64,000 nucleotides of DNA. Source: Balanoglossus misakiensis (lineage: Eukaryota > Animalia > Hemichordata). The stretch covers positions 10,013,337 through 10,077,336 of the forward strand of contig CM082586.2 in NCBI GenBank assembly GCA_040954595.2, read 5' to 3'. The notes beneath the pieces are model-generated. The model saw nothing but the letters and a program-made list of their open reading frames with translations, did not search any database and was not told the origin of the DNA. A program made the position numbers and the translations under genes. Shown here in pieces: positions 1,898-23,328 of the stretch (position 1 is the stretch's first letter; each line of letters opens with the position of its first letter).

Positions 1898-2216
1898 GTT
1901 TTATCGTTTTGTTGTGCATTTGTTTGTATACTATCATAAATTGTTGCCATATAGTGGAGACCATGGTTTTGATAGGTAGAGATTCTGCAAATTGTGAAGA
2001 CGGTGCTGGGTCTGTAGGCTGGTACTGTTACTGTATGTGCGCTTGTGGTTTCCTGCTATATAATATGGGCCGTGTTGGTTTGCGTCGTGCGTTTGGCTGT
2101 GTTGACTTGTGCTGAATGCCCTGTACTGCTAGGGGTTGTCAAACTGGGGGTTGTAAATCGCGATACAGCAAAGCATATATGCAGAAAGAATATCTAAGAT
2201 AGGGAGAAAATTTGGG

Positions 2217-3989
2217 TTGGAAGGGACTGCTTTAAAAGATTATGTTAGAGAGGAACAAATTAGACAGAGGGATCTTAGGGCTACTGAGAGAGAGGAGCAG
2301 AGAGAAGATAATAGGCGGCGCGAGGAACATGAGAGAGAGATACTGAAAATGCAAATTCACTTACAAGAATTAAAATTGAAAGGGGAAAATACAGAACAGC
2401 AGGTTACTGAAAATAATTTGGCCAAAGCGCGTGCTCCGAGACTACAGGGTTTTCGTGAGGATGTTGATGATATGGATGCGTACCTTCAACGTTTTCAGCG
2501 CTACGCCACTGCTCAGAAGTGGGAAAAAGATGACTGGGGGTGAATCTCAGTGCATATTGTTACAAGGTAAGGATGTATCCACATACAACCAAATGCCTGC
2601 AGCGTCTGCAAATAATTATGATGAATTGAAACCAGAGTTATTGAGGGCTTACCAGTTAAGTGAGGAGAGTTTTCATGACAAGTTCCGTTCGTGTATGCCA
2701 CATTATGATGAAAGTGCTCAAAAGTTTATGGACCGTATTGGTGACTATTTGGGCAGATGGGTAGAACTGGCTGGTACTCCAAAGACGTACAATGGGCTTA
2801 CAGATCTGTTACTTCGAGAGCAGTTTATTGGAGTATGTTCCAGAGACATGGCAATGTTCATTAGAGAGCGACGGCCAGAGAATGTCCAAGAGATGGTATC
2901 TACTGCCTCAAAATACTTAGATGCCCGAGGGTGGTGGAAACTGCCAAGTAATGCCAAGAATAATCCAAGGAGCCAGCCGACAGCAAATACCAAGCCTTCT
3001 GTATATCCAAATCAAGTAAATAAGTTTAATAACAAAACCAATGGTTCCCATGTTTTTAAAGGTACGTGCTTCGTATGTGGTAAAGGTGGTCATATGGCCA
3101 AAGATTGTAGAAGTAAGCCAAAGATGCATAAGACGGCGGTATTGTTAACTGAAGAAGATAGAAACTATCCACCTAAACAAGAATGTACACATTGGGGCAA
3201 CCGTCAACAGCCCAGGGGACTAGACACTGGTTATGCATGTATGGTGGTAGCAATGGAAATAGATAAAACAGATGCAACACTGAATAAGGAGTTCGTGTTA
3301 CCATGTGGTCATAAGCTCCCAGTGATGAGTGCTGCTTGTAGTGCCCATGGAGTGAAGAAGATGCCGGTAATGAAGGGATTGCTCGATGGTAAGCTGGTTA
3401 GCGTTTTGCGTGATAGTGGGTGTAGTAGCGTGGTAGTTCGAAGAAGTCTGGTGTCAAGTAATCAGCTGACTGGTGAGTACAGGACGTGTGTTCTGATAGA
3501 TGGGACTATTAGAAGAGTACCTGTAGCCTCTATAAAAGTTGATACCCCTTACTTTGTTGGTGATGTTACTGCACTGTGCATGATGAACCATGTGTATGAT
3601 TTAATACTGGGCAACATTGATGGTGTATCTGACCCTTCGAATCCTGATACTACATGGCAGGAACCATTGCCGACATGTAGACTGTGTACAACTGTTGGAC
3701 AGGTACCAGGTTTAGCAAATGCTGTGGAGACCAGAGCCCAGAAGATAGCCAACCAAAAACCAATCAGAGAGCTTAAAGTACCTAAAGCTGTTGGTGAAGT
3801 GGTGATGCCAGGGAAGCTTCAACAAGCTCAAGAAGAAGACTCCACTCTTGACAAACTACGTGAGAAGGCAATTTTGGGTGACGAGAAAGTGACTAGGAAT
3901 GGAGGTAGGTTGAAGTTCATCATGAAAGATGGGATCCTGTACAGAGAGTTCAATTCGCCAATGGTCCAATTTGGTGAAAAGCTGTTACA
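2217..3989 (+). pseudogene. gag-protease-(integrase N-terminal linker) of the Gmr1-like element
   Basis: Coiled-coil N-terminus, DAYLQRFQRYA..W gag motif, frameshift near 2540, capsid/SCAN-like region (LLREQF...FIRERRP), CFVCGKGGHMAKDC zinc knuckle, VLRDSGCS aspartic protease, LQQAQEEDSTL...KDGILYR. The last ~33 aa of ORF 2431-4092 are read-through into the inserted transposon. Confidence 0.9.
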
Positions 3990-4029
3990 CACTGCGGGAA
4001 ATACTAGAGCTATGTTGGGCAGTATTCCG
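3990..4029 (+). repeat. Left bipartite terminal inverted repeat
   Basis: CACTGCGG - 18 nt - TGGGCAGTATTCCG; the inner block starts at nt 27 from the end (4016). Confidence 0.85.
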
Positions 4030-4073
4030 CGAAGCGCGAGCTCCCATGTTCACCATAGCAACGCATTGCCAAG

Positions 4074-4724
4074 ATGGCGGCGCCCGTGTTGATCGATGCC
4101 GAGAAAGTTATAAAACGCAAATTGCGAGAGGCAAAATCTGTGCTTAAACGTAAAAAATGCGTGTCGGACAATCTGTATATACACCCACTCTTTGATGAAC
4201 TTGAGGATGTGACAACAAGGGCCATATTTCGAAACGACAAGCTGTCAAAGGACAAGATTCGTTGGCGTGACGTCGCCGTATTTCCCATGTTTCAGCGTGA
4301 TATGACCTACTGGCAGAAGACCTTCTACGCTCGGCTGTCAACATCCCCGTCGTTAAGGTCACCATGGCAAAGCAGCTTTACACGACAAATGCCGAGGGAA
4401 GTATTTGATGTTTTTCATCAGTTTGCTACTCGGACCGGTTTTGGTATCGACGAGAAGACCTCCAGGGCTATCATAACCTTGACCTTCACAAGTTCCTTGA
4501 AGCTATTGTATGTGATACGGAAAGGTTATTGCTACGAGGGCGCTATCGGTCAGCATACAGAGAATATCCTAGAGAAGAAAGTCCGTGGAAAGAGGGTAGC
4601 TGTTATATTCACACCTGAGAAGCCCTGTGTTGTGAAATATTTTATCAACAGGGAGACTGTTGCTGTTAGATTCAGCTTTGGTGCCTGGAACAAACATGGA
4701 ATTCCATTACATCCAGAGAACTGA
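4074..4724 (+). CDS. 216-aa basic protein of unknown function, second gene of the DNA transposon
   Basis: Uninterrupted ORF with a good ATG context (AAGATGGCG), more GC-rich than the AT-rich sequence downstream, AATAAA at ~4853. No domain recognised; no kelch or PHD pattern seen. Confidence 0.7.
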   Translation: MAAPVLIDAEKVIKRKLREAKSVLKRKKCVSDNLYIHPLFDELEDVTTRAIFRNDKLSKDKIRWRDVAVFPMFQRDMTYWQKTFYARLSTSPSLRSPWQSSFTRQMPREVFDVFHQFATRTGFGIDEKTSRAIITLTFTSSLKLLYVIRKGYCYEGAIGQHTENILEKKVRGKRVAVIFTPEKPCVVKYFINRETVAVRFSFGAWNKHGIPLHPEN

Positions 4725-5576
4725 ACCCTATTGATTTTTCACACTGATTCAACCCATCTGAGGAACATTTTTTTCCTGATCTGTGGCACATGTTGTTCAG
4801 TGTAGATGTATCAGTCTGTCAAGACAGTCCTCTCACAATTGACATATATTCAAATAAAAAAAGGAAAATTAGAAGACTCAAAAATTCATCACTTGTCTTT
4901 ATTTATCTACATTCAATACAAATGAACAGATAATGTTTACAAAATTTCCTAAACTGTAAAATTCTTTTTTTCCATCATTATTGTAACATAGATTTTTCAT
5001 TAGTTTCAGAAAAAAATGTATGTTACCTACAATCAACATTGATAAGTCAATCAAAACTGCTCATCTAACAGTTAACCAGGATTTCTGGTCTAAATTTAAT
5101 TAATATTTACAATTAATTCCATGACAAAATTTATAAATATCAAGAATTTGATGAGACTTAATTCTTTATTTTTTCACAAATTCATTAAAATTTCGTGCAG
5201 GTGCAGAATAAACAACTCCTCAAGAAAAATGTAAAACTTTTCTATCAAGCTTATGTATGTCATACATTTTAATTTTGCAAAGCACTGCAATCACTATACG
5301 ATTAAGGGTTTATTCACAATACTTAATAGTGGTAAGATAAGTTTCAATTTCCCTGTCCCCATACATGCACACATATACAAAATCCCATAAGAAACATATC
5401 ATCTCCAGTTCAAAAAGTGTGAATTCATGTGATTTGTGATCTCCATTTTTATTAAATGCAGCTCTCAACTACAGATGAGTCTTTATAATTCTGTAATGTA
5501 ATTAATACTATAGTTATCCTTTAATTCTAAAGTAGCACACAGTGACACAATCCACTGTTTCAAATTCAATCATTGT

Positions 5577-8500
5577 TCACAGCATAAGTTTCTTGAGTTT
5601 ATTTGATATTTTACCAGTGACAGCTGCTTTTTTTATGTCATCCATAATTGGGTCAACACATATTTCACAGGCAGTCATTGTTTCATTTTTTTAAATTGCC
5701 ACACATACAGTAGCCTGCATTCTCATAATATCGACTGGGAATGTATTTTTCTTTTTCTTTAAGCTCAAATTGACCTACATTTGCATTTCTATAGTTGTCA
5801 GCTTTTGGACTTTTGTTCCTCAGCCAAAAAAGCATCACATATTCGTGTCGAAATATGAGGGCCCACCTATTTTGAGGTGTAGAATTTTCACTGAATTCTA
5901 GCAGGCGTAGATGCTTTGCCTCTCTGCCTTCCATTGTGTTTAGGCCTAATCCCAGACTGAATTGCTTATAGATACTAGTGGTGTGTTTTGGGACTACATA
6001 ACCAATGTGCCACACAGTATTATTGACATTCAGAAACAGGGAATGTAGATTAAAGTACCACCGACACTTATGCCTAAGTACAAGCAAATCTCCCTCATTT
6101 ATGTTGAATCGTGAGAATAACAAAGTGATATCTCTAAGCAAGATACCAGTATATGTGTAGAGAGCTAATTGAGCCCGACGCTTTGGTCTGTCTGTATCGC
6201 TTCTCAATGCTAATACCAATCCTATGAAATGCCAAGCAAGTTTGCGAGACTCCTCACCAGTGAAGCGATAAACCACATTAATGTTGGCATTTGACTTGAC
6301 ACTATTTTCATTGAAGTATTTTACAATCTTATTATACAACTTTCCAGCTTTTACTTGATATTTTAGGGCAGACAGGAATTTGTACAGATATGACTCGTTA
6401 GGTAGATTCTCAATTTTAACTCCATTTTCACGACCCTTTTCCGAAGTGTGGGCAACTGCGTCAATCAGTAATCGTTGGAAGTAGTATTGCCATGCATTGT
6501 TCTTTAAATGCAATGGCTCAGCCTTGGCACAATCAATAAATCTACCCAACGGTGGTACAAATTCCTGTCTTGACCTCAGACTGGCTATAAATTGTGTGAT
6601 TTTGGGTCGCACTGTTTTGGGCTTTCCAGTTTTAATTTTCTTAGTTGACTTCAACTTTTCAACAGCTTCTGCATCTTTAATTCTTTTCTGATATTTCCAT
6701 TCATCCCACTTCTGACCTGGGCCAATTTCTGCTCCAATACAATCAATATCATTTTTGGAACGTTAGCAAATGAGCTGAAATACTTTGCTGCATTGCTTAG
6801 TTCTCCAGACACACTGGCCAATCCCTTCTGATCAAAGGGTAAAAGTGACACCTGAAAAGTTACATCAAGACTGCCAACTTTATATTTACGTTTCTCAATA
6901 CACTCAAGGTCTTTTGACAATGCAATTGCAAATTCAATCATTATGGGGTCATCCTCTTTTATGTTTGCCCCTAATAGGAGAAAATTGTGGTCTGGGCTAG
7001 CAACACGGTGGGTCACATTCAAGAAACTAACTAGCCATGCAGTGGCCTGTCCATGTTTGCCAAACGGAGCCCCGTCAGCACCTATACTGATTTGAAATGA
7101 GCCCTCCTGTTTACCGAACCAGTTAAGAATATCAGGCTGTGTTTCCCCCATATTTAAATATAAACTGGCAATCTTAATAAGCAACTCCTCAGGGTTTCTT
7201 TTTAAGCCGACTTGTTTGCCTTCAGATGATATAATTGGCTCAAGATTTCCAATGTCAAGGTTACTTACATACTGTACAACTTTTGTGTATGGGAGCAGTC
7301 TTGGTATTCTACAGCCAGAATGAATTTCTAATGCTTTCCTAGGATGTTTCAAGTTGGAGAACATCTGAAGTTCACTCTGCCTCAGACAGTTATATTTTCG
7401 TTTGGATAGTACTCCGCCCTCATACATAGTTCTGACACTCCTCACCAAATTGTTCTCACTTTTCTCAAATTTACTGATGTATTTATCAAATACTGATGGC
7501 ATTACTTTTTTACTGATTTGGGGAGAGGTTCTGAAGAATGTTTTCATTTGGTCAGGAGTGGCAGAATTAACAAGAGTATACCACAAACCATCAAGTGCTG
7601 CTTTTGGTGGATGTAGTACATTCGGTTTATTTATACCTTTGGCTGGGCTTACATCTGTAGTTGCTACATGAATATTTATGGCTGCTGATAAGGTTTCACA
7701 CCTACGTTCATACTGTTGACGTCGCGACAGCTTCAAAGATTCACTATTATCTGCACATACTTCAGTGTTCTTGTGGACCCATTTAGAGCGTTTCACATTA
7801 ACAACATCAACAGGAATCTGAAAGATTAAGTGTGTGATAAATATATACTAATTAGAATATAATCATTATATATAAAATAAAATCTTCTTACAAGTTAATC
7901 ATTAATTTAAATGTCCTTGATAAGAAATACACACGTGTAGCCTGTATTTTTCTGACAACTTCTGCAATAAAAATCCTAAAAAATATACATAGTTTGTTGG
8001 AAAACCTAGATGTTTTGCATCAAAGCTGAACCCATTTTGTTATCATTGTTTACACAGGATCATGTGACATGAAGTTCAAAAAGCGAATTTGGGCTAAAAT
8101 TTGAAGAGGATTTATACAAATCTGAGATTTTTAAAATTATGACTAAGTCTATTTATCTGATCTAGCTTACCTTTCTCTTATTATTCTTTGTAGCTAAGAT
8201 CTCACAAATCTTACTGTTCTTCTTCTCTAGTCTAGCTAGCTGGGTTGAGGATCTTTTTACTAGTCTCCTAGCTGCACTCAACTTATTCAACTTATCCTGA
8301 ATTATGCTTTCTTCCTCATCTCTCTTTCTCTTTCTCTGTCTACACCACTCTCCTAAGTTAAACCTGTGTTTAGTCTGTCCTCTCTTTGTTCTAACTACCA
8401 ATAGGTTGTTGGCCACGCTCCCAGACAAAGATCTAGTCTTCAATTTCTCCTGATATAGTTGTTGTAAACACTTCTCTTCAGCTACCTGTCTCGCTATCTT

Positions 8501-8614
8501 TTGGTCCTTTGCCCACTGGCCTATGTTGAAGTAACTTTTCCCTTTTCTATTCGGCATAACAATAGACAAACTTTTAAGAAGTGCGCTACTCCTGTTGAAT
8601 AGTTTGCCCCACAT
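5577..8614 (-). pseudogene. Spliced RAG1/Transib/Chapaev-like DDE transposase (~890 aa after repairing two 1-bp frameshifts)
   Basis: Exon 8614-8171 (phase-0 donor AAG|GTAAG), intron 8170-7818, exon 7817-5577 (TTTCAG| acceptor, phase 0). Motifs collinear with the RAG1 core: LSRRQQYERR (NBD-like), ISIGADG (D600-like), PFDQK (D708-like), EPLH (H795-like), RFTGEESRK (MNGNFARK-like), MEGREAKH (E962-like). Frameshifts at ~6760 (FANV/SKNDID) and in the A7 run at ~5690. Confidence 0.8.
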
Positions 8615-9422
8615 GGCTCTAAATCTATACCTGAAAAGGGTGAACAAGAGAAATATCTTTACAATAATTATCTATCCGAGGGAAGCAAAAACAAAACACC
8701 TGCTCATTATACTTCCTCCAGAAATTGAGGTCAAAGGTGACATAGAAAGAATGTGGGTAACCTTACCATAACAATCTCGCCCATTCATTTTTTTCTTATT
8801 TCGTTTTCACCCTCGAATTTCCAGCGAATTATATCAAGAATATATTTTAGCACAAACTATTGGTTTCTGATTTTTCAGTTACGGTCTTATTTTCTGTCAA
8901 TTCTATGAACAATATCACCATGTCGCCGAAAATTCGAAGCGCCGCCATTACAATCAATGTAACCCGTGCTGCTGCCAAGGAACACACAGGGTCGTATATT
9001 TTCGCTTGGTATGATTTCGTCATATTGCTTGTAGCAGCATTTTAAACATGGAATCCTATGTTTACGTATAAAAGACTAAATTCGTATGGTTTTCAAATTG
9101 AAAAAAACAATTCTGTGAAGCTGAATCGTTGTAATTTTTAGTGTTTGTTTATGGTTGCTTAGGACGGCTTCTGCTATAGCAACGGCCAGGGACTGTCAGC
9201 GGGTGATCAAAATGTTCAAGTTATTTGGCTGATACACATAAATAACACAGCAGAATCGCAACTTTATTTCATATTGTCTCTGACATCTTGCTAATTTTAC
9301 TAAACAAAACTTGGAATAAAGCAATATTACTCACCGAATTATGCTGTGCATCGACAGCTGTGTTCGATCGCGAACGCCATTACTGTGTCTAATTAAATAT
9401 TCATGAGCTTCATAGGCTGCCA

Positions 9423-9463
9423 CGGAAATACTGCCCATAGGTGGCGTCGTTCAAGCTGTAGTG
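9423..9463 (-). repeat. Right bipartite terminal inverted repeat
   Basis: Reverse complement reads CACTACAG - 18 nt - TGGGCAGTATTTCCG; the inner block also starts at nt 27 from the end. Confidence 0.85.
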
Positions 9464-10545
9464 ACAGGTGGTGGTTCCCAGAGTGTATCGTAACCAGGTG
9501 ATGAGACTAGCCCATGAATCAGTGCTGGGTGGTCACCACGGAACTCACAAGACCACAGACAAGATCCTCAGCAACTTCGTTTGGCCTGGGCTAACATCAG
9601 ATGTTTCCCGTTACTGTCAGTCCTGTGATTCATGTCAACGGACACAACCAAAGGGACGGGTGACCAAGGTACCACTTGGAAGTATGCCACTAATAGATAT
9701 CCCTTTCCTACGTATTGCAGTAGACCTGGTTGGCCCTATTCATCCATGCACTGAACGCAAGAATAGGTACATACTTACTGTTGTTGATTATGCAACACGC
9801 TATCCGGAGGCTGTTGCATTGACTAACATTGATACCAAGACTGTTGCAGAGGCGCTCCTGGACATCTACTCAAGAGTGGGGTGTCCACGTGAAATTCTGA
9901 CAGATCAAGGAACTCAATTTACATCAGATGTGATGCGTGAGGTCAGCCGGCTTTTGTCTATAAAGCAGATGACTACCACCCCATACCACCCAGCATTCAA
10001 TGGTCTAGTGGAACGGTTCAATGGTACATTGAAACTCATGCTCAGGAAGATGTGTGAGGAACGTCCAACATATTGGGATCGTTATCTGAATGCTTTACTA
10101 TTTGCCTACAGAGAAACGCCTCAATCGAGCACAGGATTCTCTCCGTTTGAGTTACTTTATGGGAGGAGTGTGCGTGGTCCAATGGCTATCTTGAAAGAAC
10201 TATGGACTGGAGAGATCAGTGAACCAGAAACCAAAACGACTTATCAATACATCCTTGATCTTCAAAAGAAATTAAAGAAGGCATGCGATTTAGCAAGACA
10301 AGAACTGAAGATATCACAAGGCAAATACAAGTCCTACTACAATAGAAAGGCCAAATGGAGGAAGTTCAACAAAGGTGACGAGGTGTTATTGCTACTACCT
10401 ACTGACCATAATAAACTACTTATGCACTGGAAGGGTCCTTTTCCAGTGGTGGAGAAAGCGAGCAATATGGATTACAAGATTGACTTTGGTCATAGGGTGA
10501 AAACATTCCATGCCAACCTGTTGAAGAGGTACTATCGAAGAACTG
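9464..10545 (+). pseudogene. Integrase domain of the Gmr1-like element
   Basis: HHCC (LAHESVLGGHHG...CQSCDSC), DDE (AVDLVGP, LTDQGTQF, VERFNGTLK), GPF/Y module (WKGPFPV...FHANLLK). Confidence 0.95.
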
Positions 10546-10759
10546 ATCAGCTAGATGAAGTATCAGCTGGACTTCTTGAGATTGTGTGTGTATCTGTGAT
10601 AGATGAGCAGAGTTATGAATCTTCAGAAGTACAAGAGAACACAGGGGTTAAAGTAAACGATGACTTACTGCGGGTTCCTGCATTCAAGCAGAAAGAATTT
10701 GCTGCAGATGTGAATGTATGTGACAACTTGTCAGACATACAGAAGCAAGTGGTGAGGAG

Positions 10760-11475
10760 GTTGCTGATCAATTACAAAGATATGTTAACTGATATTCGTG
10801 GTAACACCAACCTGGGTTTCCATGACATCAAGTTGATGGATCCAACACCAGTATGCAGTAGGCCATACCCCATCCCTCATGCACTCCGTGAAGCAGTGAA
10901 AGATGAAGTCAAAACGATGATTAAGATGGGAGTAGCTGAACCTTCAGAGAGTCCATATGCTGTTCCACTGGTAATGGTGAAGAAATCTGATGGGTCCAAT
11001 CGTTGTTGTGTTGACATGAGAAAGCTCAATCGCATAACAGTGTTTGATGCAGAGCCTACACCAGACCTGAGTGAGCTTTTTGCTTTTTGCTAAGTTATCC
11101 AAGGATCACTATTTCACTAAAGTAGATCTCAGCAAAGAATATTGGCAAGTCCCGTTGACTGATAATTCTAAACAATTGACGGCATTTATCACGCATGATG
11201 GGCTATACCAATTTATCAAAATGCCTTTCGGACTTGTAAATAGTGCTGCGACTTTTAGCAGAATTATGAGAAGATTGTTAAGAGATATGAAGAACGTAGA
11301 CAACTATATCGATCACATACTGATCCACACTGCATCATGGGAAGAACATATCAAGACAATTACAGATTTGATGAGCAGACTACGAAAGGCAAAGTTAACA
11401 GCGAGACCAACTAAGTGTTATGTGGGTTATGAGCAGATCGATTTCCTGGGTCATGTGGTTGGTCATGGTGAACTA
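10760..11475 (+). pseudogene. Reverse transcriptase domain (frameshifted, catalytic YIDD changed to YIDH, truncated)
   Basis: SPYAVPLVMVKKSDGSNRCCVDMRKLN, frameshift ~11080, DLSKEYWQV, MPFGLVNSAATF, YIDHIL, KC...FLGH. Confidence 0.93.
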
Positions 11476-11623
11476 GTCCTGTTTCAAAATGACCTACATT
11501 ACAGGTCCTATGCACACGTATTACATGTTCTGATTGGTTTATCCACTTCTCTAAGGTCCACTTGCGGCTCGCTGATTGGAGGGACCTTATGTGTTAGGTC
11601 ATATTACTATGTATTATTCACCA

Positions 11624-11829
11624 GACCTTGTAGGTTAGGTCTTATTACAATGCATTATTCACTTTACAGCTCCCTGATTGGTTAATGTGTAGGTCTGGTC
11701 CTCCAGTGTTCACTGCCTCATTATGCAGGACCTTGTAGGTTAGGTCTTATTAATATGTATTTATTCACCATACAGCTCCCTGATTGGTTAACGTGTCAGT
11801 CTGGTCCCCCCAGTGTTCACTGCCTCATT
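11624..11829 (+). repeat. Two ~105-bp tandem units (plus a degenerate upstream partial) in the sequence that replaces the retroelement 3' half
   Basis: GACCTTGTAGGTTAGGTCTTATTA...CAGCTCCCTGATTGGTTAA...CCAGTGTTCACTGCCTCATT starting at 11624 and at 11729. Confidence 0.8.
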
Positions 11830-20179: not shown

Positions 20180-23100
20180 TAGTGCGGTATGGTATGTCAT
20201 GAAAAACAGCTCCCGTAGGATTGTTGTGCTAAAATTGATTTTTTTGCTGTTTTGGCTTCTATTGGGACCCAACTACCCGAAAATGATGGGGTGCAATTTT
20301 AAGGGCCCCTCCATCATATTTTTCTCGGGGGGGGGGGGTACTTCCGTTTTGTGGTATGATGTGTATTCCCGTAGGATTTTTGTGCTAAAATTGATTTTTT
20401 TGCTGTTTTGGCTTCTATGGGGACCCAACTACCCGAAAATGATGGGGTGCAATTTTTAGGGCCCCTCCATCATATTTTTTCGGGGGGGGGGGGTCGTCAC
20501 TCCTGTTTTGGCCTCCCCGAAGATATTTATTCACCTATCTACTCCATTTTCGTAGAATTTTCTGCTAAAGAATTTTTTTTTTGCTGTTTTGACACCTGGT
20601 CACAAAAGATCACATGCAAATTTTAGGGCCCCTCTATTACATTTGTGGGGGGGGGGGCACTTACATTCCGACAATCTTAACGGTATTTGTTCACCTATAC
20701 CGTGTATTCTCGTAGGAGTTTTTGCTAATAGTTATTTGTTTTGTTTGCTGTTTTGGTTTCAATGATGAATAAACATCCCCAAAATGATGGAAATCAATTT
20801 GTTGGACCCCTCCATCACATTTTCTTGCAGGGGGGGGGGGGGTCACTTTAGTTTTAGCAGCCCTGGAGATATTTGTTCATAGTGTGACATGTGTATTTGT
20901 AAAGGATTTCTTCCAATTTCTTTTTTTTTAACTTCTATGGGGACCTAACTGCTCAAAAATGAGGTCAAATTTTAGGGCCTCTCCACATATTGGGAATCTT
21001 AAATATTAGACGGTTTATGGGTAAACATATCAGTTACCTACATTTGTATCAGTTGTCATATATACTACAGCGCTATCTTATTTTTATAAATATACTTAGT
21101 TGAATTTTGACACTAACAAATCAACCACAAATATCTCTCTGGTTTGGACTTAGCATAATATACCTCCCCTCACCTTGGACCGCCACCCAACTCATCACCA
21201 CACTCATGTTTTCTATGGTTTACAAAAATATAGTATACTAGGCTATACCAAATAGTGAACACCTATTGCCTGGCCATGAGGGCCATAGCAGCCGTTTATT
21301 ACACCCGAGGGGCCGTGAGTTACCAGAATCATATGCATATGATTCTGGTAACTTTTTCGTTAAGAGTTGTTTATTCTTTCGTAGCACAATCAATGTCTGA
21401 GATATTTACCATTGTACTAAAATTCTCATCGATATAAGTCTGTGCATAAACTCTGAAGTACGTTTTAATCAACACTTGTTTTTTGGGGTATTAAAACGAT
21501 ATTCAGTTGAACTCATTTCAAAGTTAAATACTGTCGTAAATAAAGCCATATCAGTTGAAGTATTGTCTATTTTAAAGTAGTATTTTCAAAATTTTCATGC
21601 CAATAGCAAAATAGTGCTGTAAAAAGCCCTTGAACTATGTCTTACTTCTAAAACTTGTTTTGGTAAACATTAACAATATCAAATTTGGCTCATTTTGTAG
21701 CTCAATACTACTGAAAATAAAACAAGTCTGTGAACTACATCTCAGTTTTATTACTAAATACATATTGGCTATTTTCTTAGCACCGTAAGCAGCGTTTTAC
21801 GTTCCAGTTCGATAGCTATTAGGACATTTTGCAATAAACTACAGAATTAATATGTAGATAAAAATAAGATTTGCGTGATCTGTGAAAAGGGTGCCACCCC
21901 TTCATCACAATGAGAGATAAATCATACGCAACAAATTGTCCTGAACTTCCCCCAATCAAAAAGAATGGGTGGAAATCGGAGAATGGCGTGTTTTATCCAG
22001 TAAAATGTCTTGCTCTCCCTGCACCAAAGGCAGTACTAGAGCTTATCAAATGTGGCTGCAAAGCAGGTTGTAGGGGACGTTGCAGTTGCTCAAAGAATGA
22101 TTTACTATGTACTCCCCTCTGCAAATGCTATGGTGGAGACTGAAAACCAGGGGGAAATGTTCTTGAAGATAACGACACTGGCGATGAGTAGATCAAACAG
22201 AACTGGGTTTCGTGAAAATGATGATTGAGAATACCAAGATATCAGAAAAGAATCGTTATGCTTCTTGGGTTGTTTATTGCACCGTCCGTGGTAGGGAGGG
22301 TGCCTCAAGGGTCCATTTTATGAGATGGGACTGTAGCTCGGAAAATAAACTAAAATACACATTATGTACTTTATTATATATAAAGGAGTTTTAATTTACC
22401 TTAGTATACTAAATTTAGAATAAACGAAAAAATCTAAGATAAAAAAAAACTACTGTTACAACGGGTTGGCGAAAACAAATATAGAGAACCCCCCCCCCCC
22501 CCCCCCACCAAAAAATGTGGTAAAGGGGTCCAACATTTTGCACACCATCACTTTTCGGCAGTCAGTCTGCATTCAAGCCAAAGGAGCAAACCAAATTGCA
22601 AGAAATACCACGACAATACTAACCGTATAGTAAATAGGTGAATAAGTATCTTCAGGGTGGCCAAAACAGAAATGATTACCCTCCCCCCCCCAAGACATGA
22701 TGGAAGGTTCCAAAAATTTGAACCCCATCATTTTAGTTCTGGTGGAGCCCCATTGAAACCAAAACATCAAAGAAAAATAATATTTTTAGCAAAATATTCT
22801 ATGAGAAGGGAGTAAATAGGCCAACAAACAACTTCGGAGTGGCCAAAATGGAAGTGCCCCCCCCCCAAATAAAAAATGATGGAGGGGCCCTATAATTTGC
22901 ACCCGATTATTTTTGGCCAGGTTGGTCTCCTCCAAAGCAAACACAACAAAAACAAATTAATTGTAGCCCAAATTCCCATGATGATAGAGTAAATAGGTGA
23001 ACAAATATCCTCGAGTGACAAAAACAGAAGAGACCCCCCGAAAAAAAATTGATGGAGGGGCCCTAAAAATTGCACCCCATGATTTTTGGGTAGTTGGGTC

Positions 23101-23328
23101 CCCATTGAAGCCAAACAGCAAAAAAAATCAATTTTAGCAGAAAAATCCTACGGGAATACACATCATACCACAAAACGGAAGTACCCCCCCCCCAGAAAAA
23201 TATGATGGAGGGGCCCTTAAAATTGCACCCCATCATTTTCGGGTAGTTGGGTCCCCGTAGAAGCCAAAACAGCAAAAAAATCAATTTTAGCACAAAAATC
23301 CTACGGGAATACACATCATACCACACTA
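20180..23328 (+). mobile_element. Non-autonomous Academ (AcademX-type) transposon inserted in the satellite
   Basis: TAGTG(C/T)GGTATG termini; 3-bp TSD AGT (20177-20179, 23329-23331) that restores a satellite monomer; ~0.8-kb TIRs built from ~155-bp subrepeats; internal Cys-rich coding remnant. Confidence 0.85.
21910..22143 (+). pseudogene. C-terminal Cys8 (CXC/tesmin-like) zinc-finger remnant of an Academ transposase
   Basis: GW...PAPKAVLELIKCGCKAGCRGRCSCSKNDLLCTPLCKC, followed by an acidic tail in a shifted frame; this pattern is typical of the C-terminus of AcademX proteins. Confidence 0.75.

Follow-up and report, generated by a model that had tools for sequence, protein, structure and literature searches.

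Harbinger and Kolobok transposons carry a conserved second open reading frame alongside the gene for their DDE transposase, a Myb/SANT partner in the former and KolX in the latter, and DNA transposons with two genes are an already known kind. A closer comparison for the locus described here is offered by the RAGL/ProtoRAG transposons, for which the available text of PMC7204232 describes two convergent genes, ends that start with CAC, and a transposase of DDE type whose C-terminal tail is rich in Cys and has the form Cx2Cx3GHx4C. Insertion of RAGL elements gives a 5-bp target-site duplication, and the second gene, RAG2L, encodes a kelch propeller and a PHD finger. Accounts of how V(D)J recombination arose have still to explain how and why a RAG1-like transposase became dependent on a second subunit, and a separate lineage in which the convergent layout goes with another partner would lend itself to comparison with RAG. 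The broader CMCT clade comprises EnSpm/CACTA, Mirage, Chapaev, Chapaev3, Transib, Plavaka, ESTA, and Lanisha; in the sections of PMC12730594 available, CA..TG termini, a duplication of 2-5 bp and a C(2)C motif are given for the whole clade, and EnSpm elements are called by CAC..GTG termini together with a 3-bp duplication.

The window analysed here is a stretch of 64,000 nucleotides from the hemichordate Balanoglossus misakiensis. It contains a DNA transposon of 5,474 bp (3990-9463) that starts with CACTGC, finishes with GTAGTG, and has ACA on both flanks (Table 1). A left end at 3988, an 8-letter loose end, was rejected in favour of 3990, because the latter yields the 3-bp duplication and matches the terminus of a relative. 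The second gene of the transposon is ORF2. From the letters alone, the original prediction had described an intact frame of 216 amino acids that begins 84 bp inside the left end, runs toward the transposase gene, and is followed by AATAAA near 4853, and these features stand: the frame is open, its ATG lies where expected relative to the end at 3990, it is convergent with the transposase gene, and the hexamer is present. No ATG-initiated frame as long as ORF2 arose in 2000 shuffles of 3990-5560. The TISU/YY1 consensus is described, in the text of PMC3177215 available, as the start element of genes with very short 5' UTRs; the ORF2 start context, CAAGATGGCGGC, is probably used as a start of this type. 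The sample from which the window derives also holds one contig with a diverged element, in which CACTACGGG lies at the matching offset and the length of the ORF is kept (546 versus 549 nt between the aligned ends).

Table 1. Positions of the transposon, its two genes, and the interrupted host element in the window.
Feature	Position	Strand	Remarks
Host Gypsy-type element, 5' part	2157..3989	+	Pfam: SCAN-like gag, zinc knuckle, weak protease match; ORFs
Target-site duplication, left copy (ACA, 3-bp)	3987..3989	+	Same 3 bases after the right end
Left terminus (CACTGCGGG...)	3990..4031	+	Short subterminal motif at 3995 (+), inverted at 4029 (-)
ORF2 start context CAAGATGGCGGC	4070..4081	+	Exact match to TISU/YY1 consensus
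ORF2, 216 aa, conserved second transposon gene	4074..4724	+	Family members carry PF26709
AATAAA, candidate polyadenylation signal of ORF2	4853..4858	+	
Transposase main exon	5610..7823	-	Read in three frames; broken near 6755 and near 5690
Transposase invariant E (GREAKH)	5940-5911	-	
Transposase invariant H (EPLH)	6519-6496	-	
Transposase invariant D, second	6839-6825	-	
Transposase invariant D (ADGAPFGK)	7079-7056	-	
Transposase N-terminal exon, predicted, basic	8171..8624	-	Bounded by splice sites AG and GT; tblastn match to P0019 weak (E 0.006)
Right terminus (CACTACAGC... on minus strand)	9423..9463	-	Third subterminal motif copy at 9423
Target-site duplication, right copy (ACA, 3-bp)	9464..9466	+	
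Host Gypsy-type element, 3' part	9464..11685	+	Pfam: integrase, then reverse transcriptase

A Pfam scan of the ORFs of the window indicated that the transposon disrupts a Gypsy-type element. This host element (2157-11685) has a SCAN-domain match in its gag and carries the integrase 5' of the reverse transcriptase, an order that we take to be Gmr1-like. At 11583-11829, where the reverse transcriptase frame breaks up, the sequence is repeated in short tandem units of 41 and 106 bp. From 18200 there is a large AT-rich satellite, which extends to at least 42782 among the matches listed, with base composition unchanged to 64000. It consists of units of 78 bp and units of 27-29 bp, with higher-order repeats, and its orientation switches around an insert near 20200-23300.

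The transposase gene of this copy is broken, and tblastn of intact relatives (700-820 aa) shifts frame near 6755 and near 5690, in agreement with the two frameshifts read from the sequence originally. At 6758, the site of the first frameshift, one contig of run X2 has a one-base insertion, which hints at other copies of the element in the same sample. The predicted N-terminal exon is probably joined to the main exon by splicing. In the alignment of relatives (A3), D236 and D319 are present in 49/49 sequences and E617 in 48/49, and H429 was also called invariant; such invariance suggests that the D-D-E triad is catalytic. The order of these motifs (D, D, H, E) is reminiscent of RAG1, Transib, and Chapaev. 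The main exon ends in a Cys cluster, and the tail reads CxCG...CxxC in 41-43 of 49 rows. A C(2)C motif at the expected place between the second D and E occurs in 0/48 sequences (anywhere between D and E, in 2/49), and the consensus at that site is Y-F-S-S-F. Within the interval from the second D to E, H(3-4)H is found in 17/48, with the last His kept in 47/49. Searches with the transposase against Pfam (23 members) and against PDB chains at E<=10 gave no match, RAG1, Transib, and CMCT families included, and PDB sequence searches with both pieces of the protein and with profiles A1, A2, and A3 returned chance-level rows only; judged by its sequence, the lineage appears to escape Pfam recognition. 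A partial relative, P0024, comes from a sea anemone. Among 48 pattern matches in viral contigs there were no transposase relatives, and among 30 in GTDB genomes there was one locus (L081).

With RAGL/ProtoRAG the element shares the convergent genes, the CAC-starting ends, and a transposase that is of DDE type and has many Cys in its C-terminal tail. However, its duplication is 3 bp rather than 5 bp, ORF2 has neither kelch propeller nor PHD finger, the tail is CxC...CxxC in place of the RAGL motif (PMC7204232, available text), and the transposase has no CxxC after the second D and was not matched by sequence to any chain of RAG1 or Transib. Identity as a RAGL transposon was rejected because the duplication, the second gene, and the tail motif are wrong. 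The original prediction had placed the ORF in a 'RAG2 position', which holds for the convergent geometry only, given the 3-bp duplication and the transposase without a RAG1 or Transib match to profile or chain. With the CMCT group the element shares CA..TG termini, a duplication in the range of 2-5 bp, a DDE triad, and the D-D-H-E order, and the CAC..GTG ends with a 3-bp duplication are those of EnSpm/CACTA. Yet C(2)C is absent in 48/48 sequences, H(3-4)H occurs in 17/48, there is no CMCT Pfam match, and the second gene does not look TnpA-like, with no Pfam match and no transposase ancestry seen. By its ends and motif order only, the element resembles the CMCT group; it seems to behave in a CMCT-like manner and may be a member. 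Tentatively, it could belong to a new and widespread lineage related to RAG1 and Transib that lost the CxxC zinc site and independently recruited an obligate partner of new fold in the RAG2 position, so that the two-subunit RAG-type transposase would have arisen a second time by convergence, although we regard this as less likely than not. Harbinger and Kolobok have termini and duplications that differ from those of this element, and ORF2 has no Myb/SANT Pfam match.

ORF2 had been called an orphan, which was wrong. That appearance is explained by a homologue search through a word index, with ORF2 alone as query, in which none of 84 candidates matched. A phmmer search of 1.84 billion representatives (50%-identity clustering) gave 81 relatives at E<=0.001, of which 12 reach E<=1e-10. 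Their lengths are mostly 100-260 aa and their identities mostly 20-39%, and most end at a common C-terminal motif. Several belong to groups of near-identical sequences, with 6-47 to a cluster, that are spread over different contigs (10 checked), a pattern that a repeat would give. Of the 20 proteins retrieved by a profile of the ORF2 family, 19 have PF26709 as their precomputed Pfam accession; the family already has a Pfam number, and the present analysis ties this catalogued family to a transposon. Neither ORF2 nor the transposase gave a meaningful family in Pfam or NCBIfam, and a Pfam scan of ORF2 with the 78 family members found none that looks catalytic and no kelch, PHD, Myb, SANT, or chromatin-reader domain. 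ORF2 and the transposase show no homology (hhalign probability 0.3%), and at the level of sequence ORF2 does not appear to be derived from the transposase. A search of the openly available literature found no description of an ORF2-transposase pairing and no paper naming PF26709 or GADGAPFGK; the element may already be filed in Repbase or Dfam, and relatives of it may be included in the supplements to PMC12730594 and to PMC9435367.

The original prediction proposed asking whether homologues lie tail-to-tail with such transposases. Loci were collected by the transposase alone, and the best 80 of 171 confirmed ones were used. In 28 of these 80, an ORF2 homologue in convergent orientation lies 277-2131 bp past the transposase, and the 28 form 14 clusters at 85% nucleotide identity. 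Most other loci are too short to tell; where at least 1.5 kb is available downstream, ORF2 is present in 22/26, so the tail-to-tail arrangement is the usual one. The pair is also found in a different collection, at L081. The reverse test, for a transposase beside each ORF2 homologue, covered one genome. Four of the 26 long loci have no ORF2 (L037, L061, L073, and L077). The match of L037 to its relative L021 ends shortly past the transposase, and it looks like a truncated copy. In the other three, which have 1.8-2.9 kb downstream, relaxing the threshold still gave no ORF2 match, and these lineages may lack the gene.

The layout within the element is also fixed. In 16/16 loci examined the ATG of ORF2 lies 70-131 bp inside a terminus of the form CAC[AG]C[CT]G, in the context ATGGC[GC]. 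Complete elements measure 4.7-7.4 kb and have perfect terminal inverted repeats of 11-16 bp. In nine loci with both ends, the duplication is 3 bp in three, 2 bp in one, 1 bp in one, and absent in four, and none has 5 bp; mismatched duplications may be assembly chimeras of multi-copy elements, because L008 and L009 share a left flank. The conditions under which the original prediction would have fallen, namely a lack of homologues, a lack of purifying selection, or an ORF belonging to a separate nested insertion or captured host fragment confined to this copy, do not hold. Passenger status, with no role for the protein, has its lack of a named family and nothing more in its favour, and is refuted by the linkage (22/26), by position and orientation kept in 14 diverged clusters, by dN/dS and by the congruent trees described below; the idea that ORF2 is integral to the element is supported.

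Comparison of dN/dS among copies, a further suggestion of the original prediction, covered three pairs, which are drawn among L001, L035, and L072 and so are not independent, include one pair of only 88 codons, and have the window's copy outside them. ORF2 has values of 0.27, 0.23, and 0.29, and the transposase has values of 0.28, 0.25, and 0.20. The ORF2 range of 0.23-0.29 indicates purifying selection, similar to that on the transposase. Between L001 and L035 the differences number 23 at first, 16 at second, and 35 at third codon positions (p 0.024). The near-identical pair L024/L062, with very few changes, has a dN/dS of 1.40, and more distant pairs have pS of 0.75-0.94 (silent sites saturated) versus pN of 0.30-0.47. 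Distances in ORF2 and in the transposase correlate (Mantel rho 0.63, p 0.0002, 15 loci, with three close duplicates dropped and the longest unbroken transposase segment only), and trees of 16 rows each have their well-supported groups in common. ORF2 diverges faster, with a mean identity of 24% versus 40% for the transposase. Congruent trees are also expected from linkage alone and therefore show long co-residence, not physical binding.

In its biophysical character the protein is as it was originally described, basic and of mixed alpha/beta pattern without resemblance to RAG2L. It has a pI of 9.97, with 39 K/R against 22 D/E, and the pI exceeds 8.5 in 62/73 long family members. A model predicted from an alignment of 77 relatives and the window's ORF (78 sequences; pLDDT 91, pTM 0.82) has 6 helices and 7 strands, arranged as a long N-terminal helix pair, a long helix at 69-87, a beta-alpha-beta-beta-alpha unit, and four further strands, with the strands in a mixed sheet. 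It contains no beta-propeller or PHD finger, and ORF2 has only 3 Cys; as in the model, no kelch or PHD match is found by Pfam in the 78 members. A model from the single sequence was discarded (pLDDT 37). Foldseek against the PDB gave no clear fold match (best E 0.024), nor did comparison with a viral structure library (best E 0.0013). In a VIA-wide fold search there was no clear match for the whole model (best Z 7.3, with every match confined to the N-terminal helix pair) or for its alpha/beta part (best Z 4.9). It is possible that the C-terminal domain, seen only as part of the larger model, has a known fold. Conserved among 105 sequences are W80, RR 86-87, P97-W98, R104, P107, E109, F111, K168, K183, and Y189, together with a C-terminal YGxWNxxGxPQH stretch.

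We conclude that this divergent lineage of DNA transposons with CAC ends has two genes, and that the second, ORF2, is a real and conserved partner gene distinct from RAG2. It probably benefits its own element. Any gene that does so, a suppressor of silencing included, would be expected to show linkage, selection, and co-divergence. We give about an even chance to the proposal that ORF2 is a dedicated cofactor of its cognate transposase, binding the transposase or the ends, on the grounds of linkage, fixed position, selection, co-divergence, a basic family, the absence of a catalytic family, and the absence of homology to the transposase. Under this proposal, a promoter in each end would fire inward, and ORF2 would be translated from a very short 5' UTR by its TISU/YY1-like start. 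The conserved basic residues RR 86-87, R104, K168, and K183 might touch DNA or the transposase, and the C-terminal stretch might provide an interaction surface. ORF2 would aid the transposase in binding or pairing the ends of the element, where the D-D-E triad would cut at CAC and leave the 3-bp duplication. It would in this way fill for its transposase the role that RAG2L has for RAG1L, though as an unrelated protein. Intact, multi-copy natural elements are available (L009 and L016 among them), and the role of ORF2 is therefore directly testable. An intact cognate pair is also present at L014, with the transposase at 3692-5872 (+) and ORF2 at 6603-7217 (-).

The main rival to a cofactor is a transcriptional regulator or anti-silencer that acts on the subterminal motifs and keeps the end promoters active, outside the cutting complex, like TnpA of Spm. 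Its basic nature would suit such a protein, as would the short motif found three times near both ends of the window's element, and the copy adjoins the large satellite array, likely a silenced region. The second genes of EnSpm elements act in this way, according to the available text of bioRxiv 10.64898/2026.08.24.746577. The same text describes TnpA as transposase-derived, however, whereas ORF2 has no transposase homology, and neither family scans nor fold searches linked it to a known DNA-binding protein; overall we judge a purely regulatory role rather unlikely. If ORF2 were only a regulator, it would be one more accessory gene of known type.

An adaptor for target selection, directing insertion to host repeats or chromatin states, seems improbable. 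The window's copy does lie inside a Gypsy element near a satellite, and at L081:1-18097 a complete ORF2-transposase pair lies within a tandem array of 294-bp units (56% GC) on a contig of a bacterial MAG. Against this, the flanks of the copies vary, as do the duplicated triplets (ACA, TAG, AGC, and ATT), and no chromatin-reader family was detected. The 294-bp repeat matched no Rfam family, and the contig is likely to be host DNA mis-binned into the bacterial MAG.

Little weight falls likewise on an RNA-binding or small enzymatic protein that would act against the host's small-RNA defence or on transposition intermediates. Language-model features of ORF2 are nearest to the Argonaute N/L1/PAZ clusters (0.93), and the conserved polar residues N206, Q212, H213, E76, and E109 could build a site. 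However, the score is flagged as weak (recognition 1361, 140/256 features shared), the likeness was not reproduced with a second family member, P0172, which gave no usable match, and the fold matches listed include no eukaryotic Argonaute chain, only SPARTA short prokaryotic Argonautes at E >=0.065.

In P0089, an unrelated nemertean gene model whose repeats we take to be Tau/MAP-like terminates in a fused ORF2 domain (residues 465-609, E 1e-27), possibly by exon capture or as an artefact of the gene model. Inverted partial copies of the ORF2 end occur in some lineages on the transposase side of the element, at L039:3705-3857, L014:1168-1263, and L081:6949-7290.
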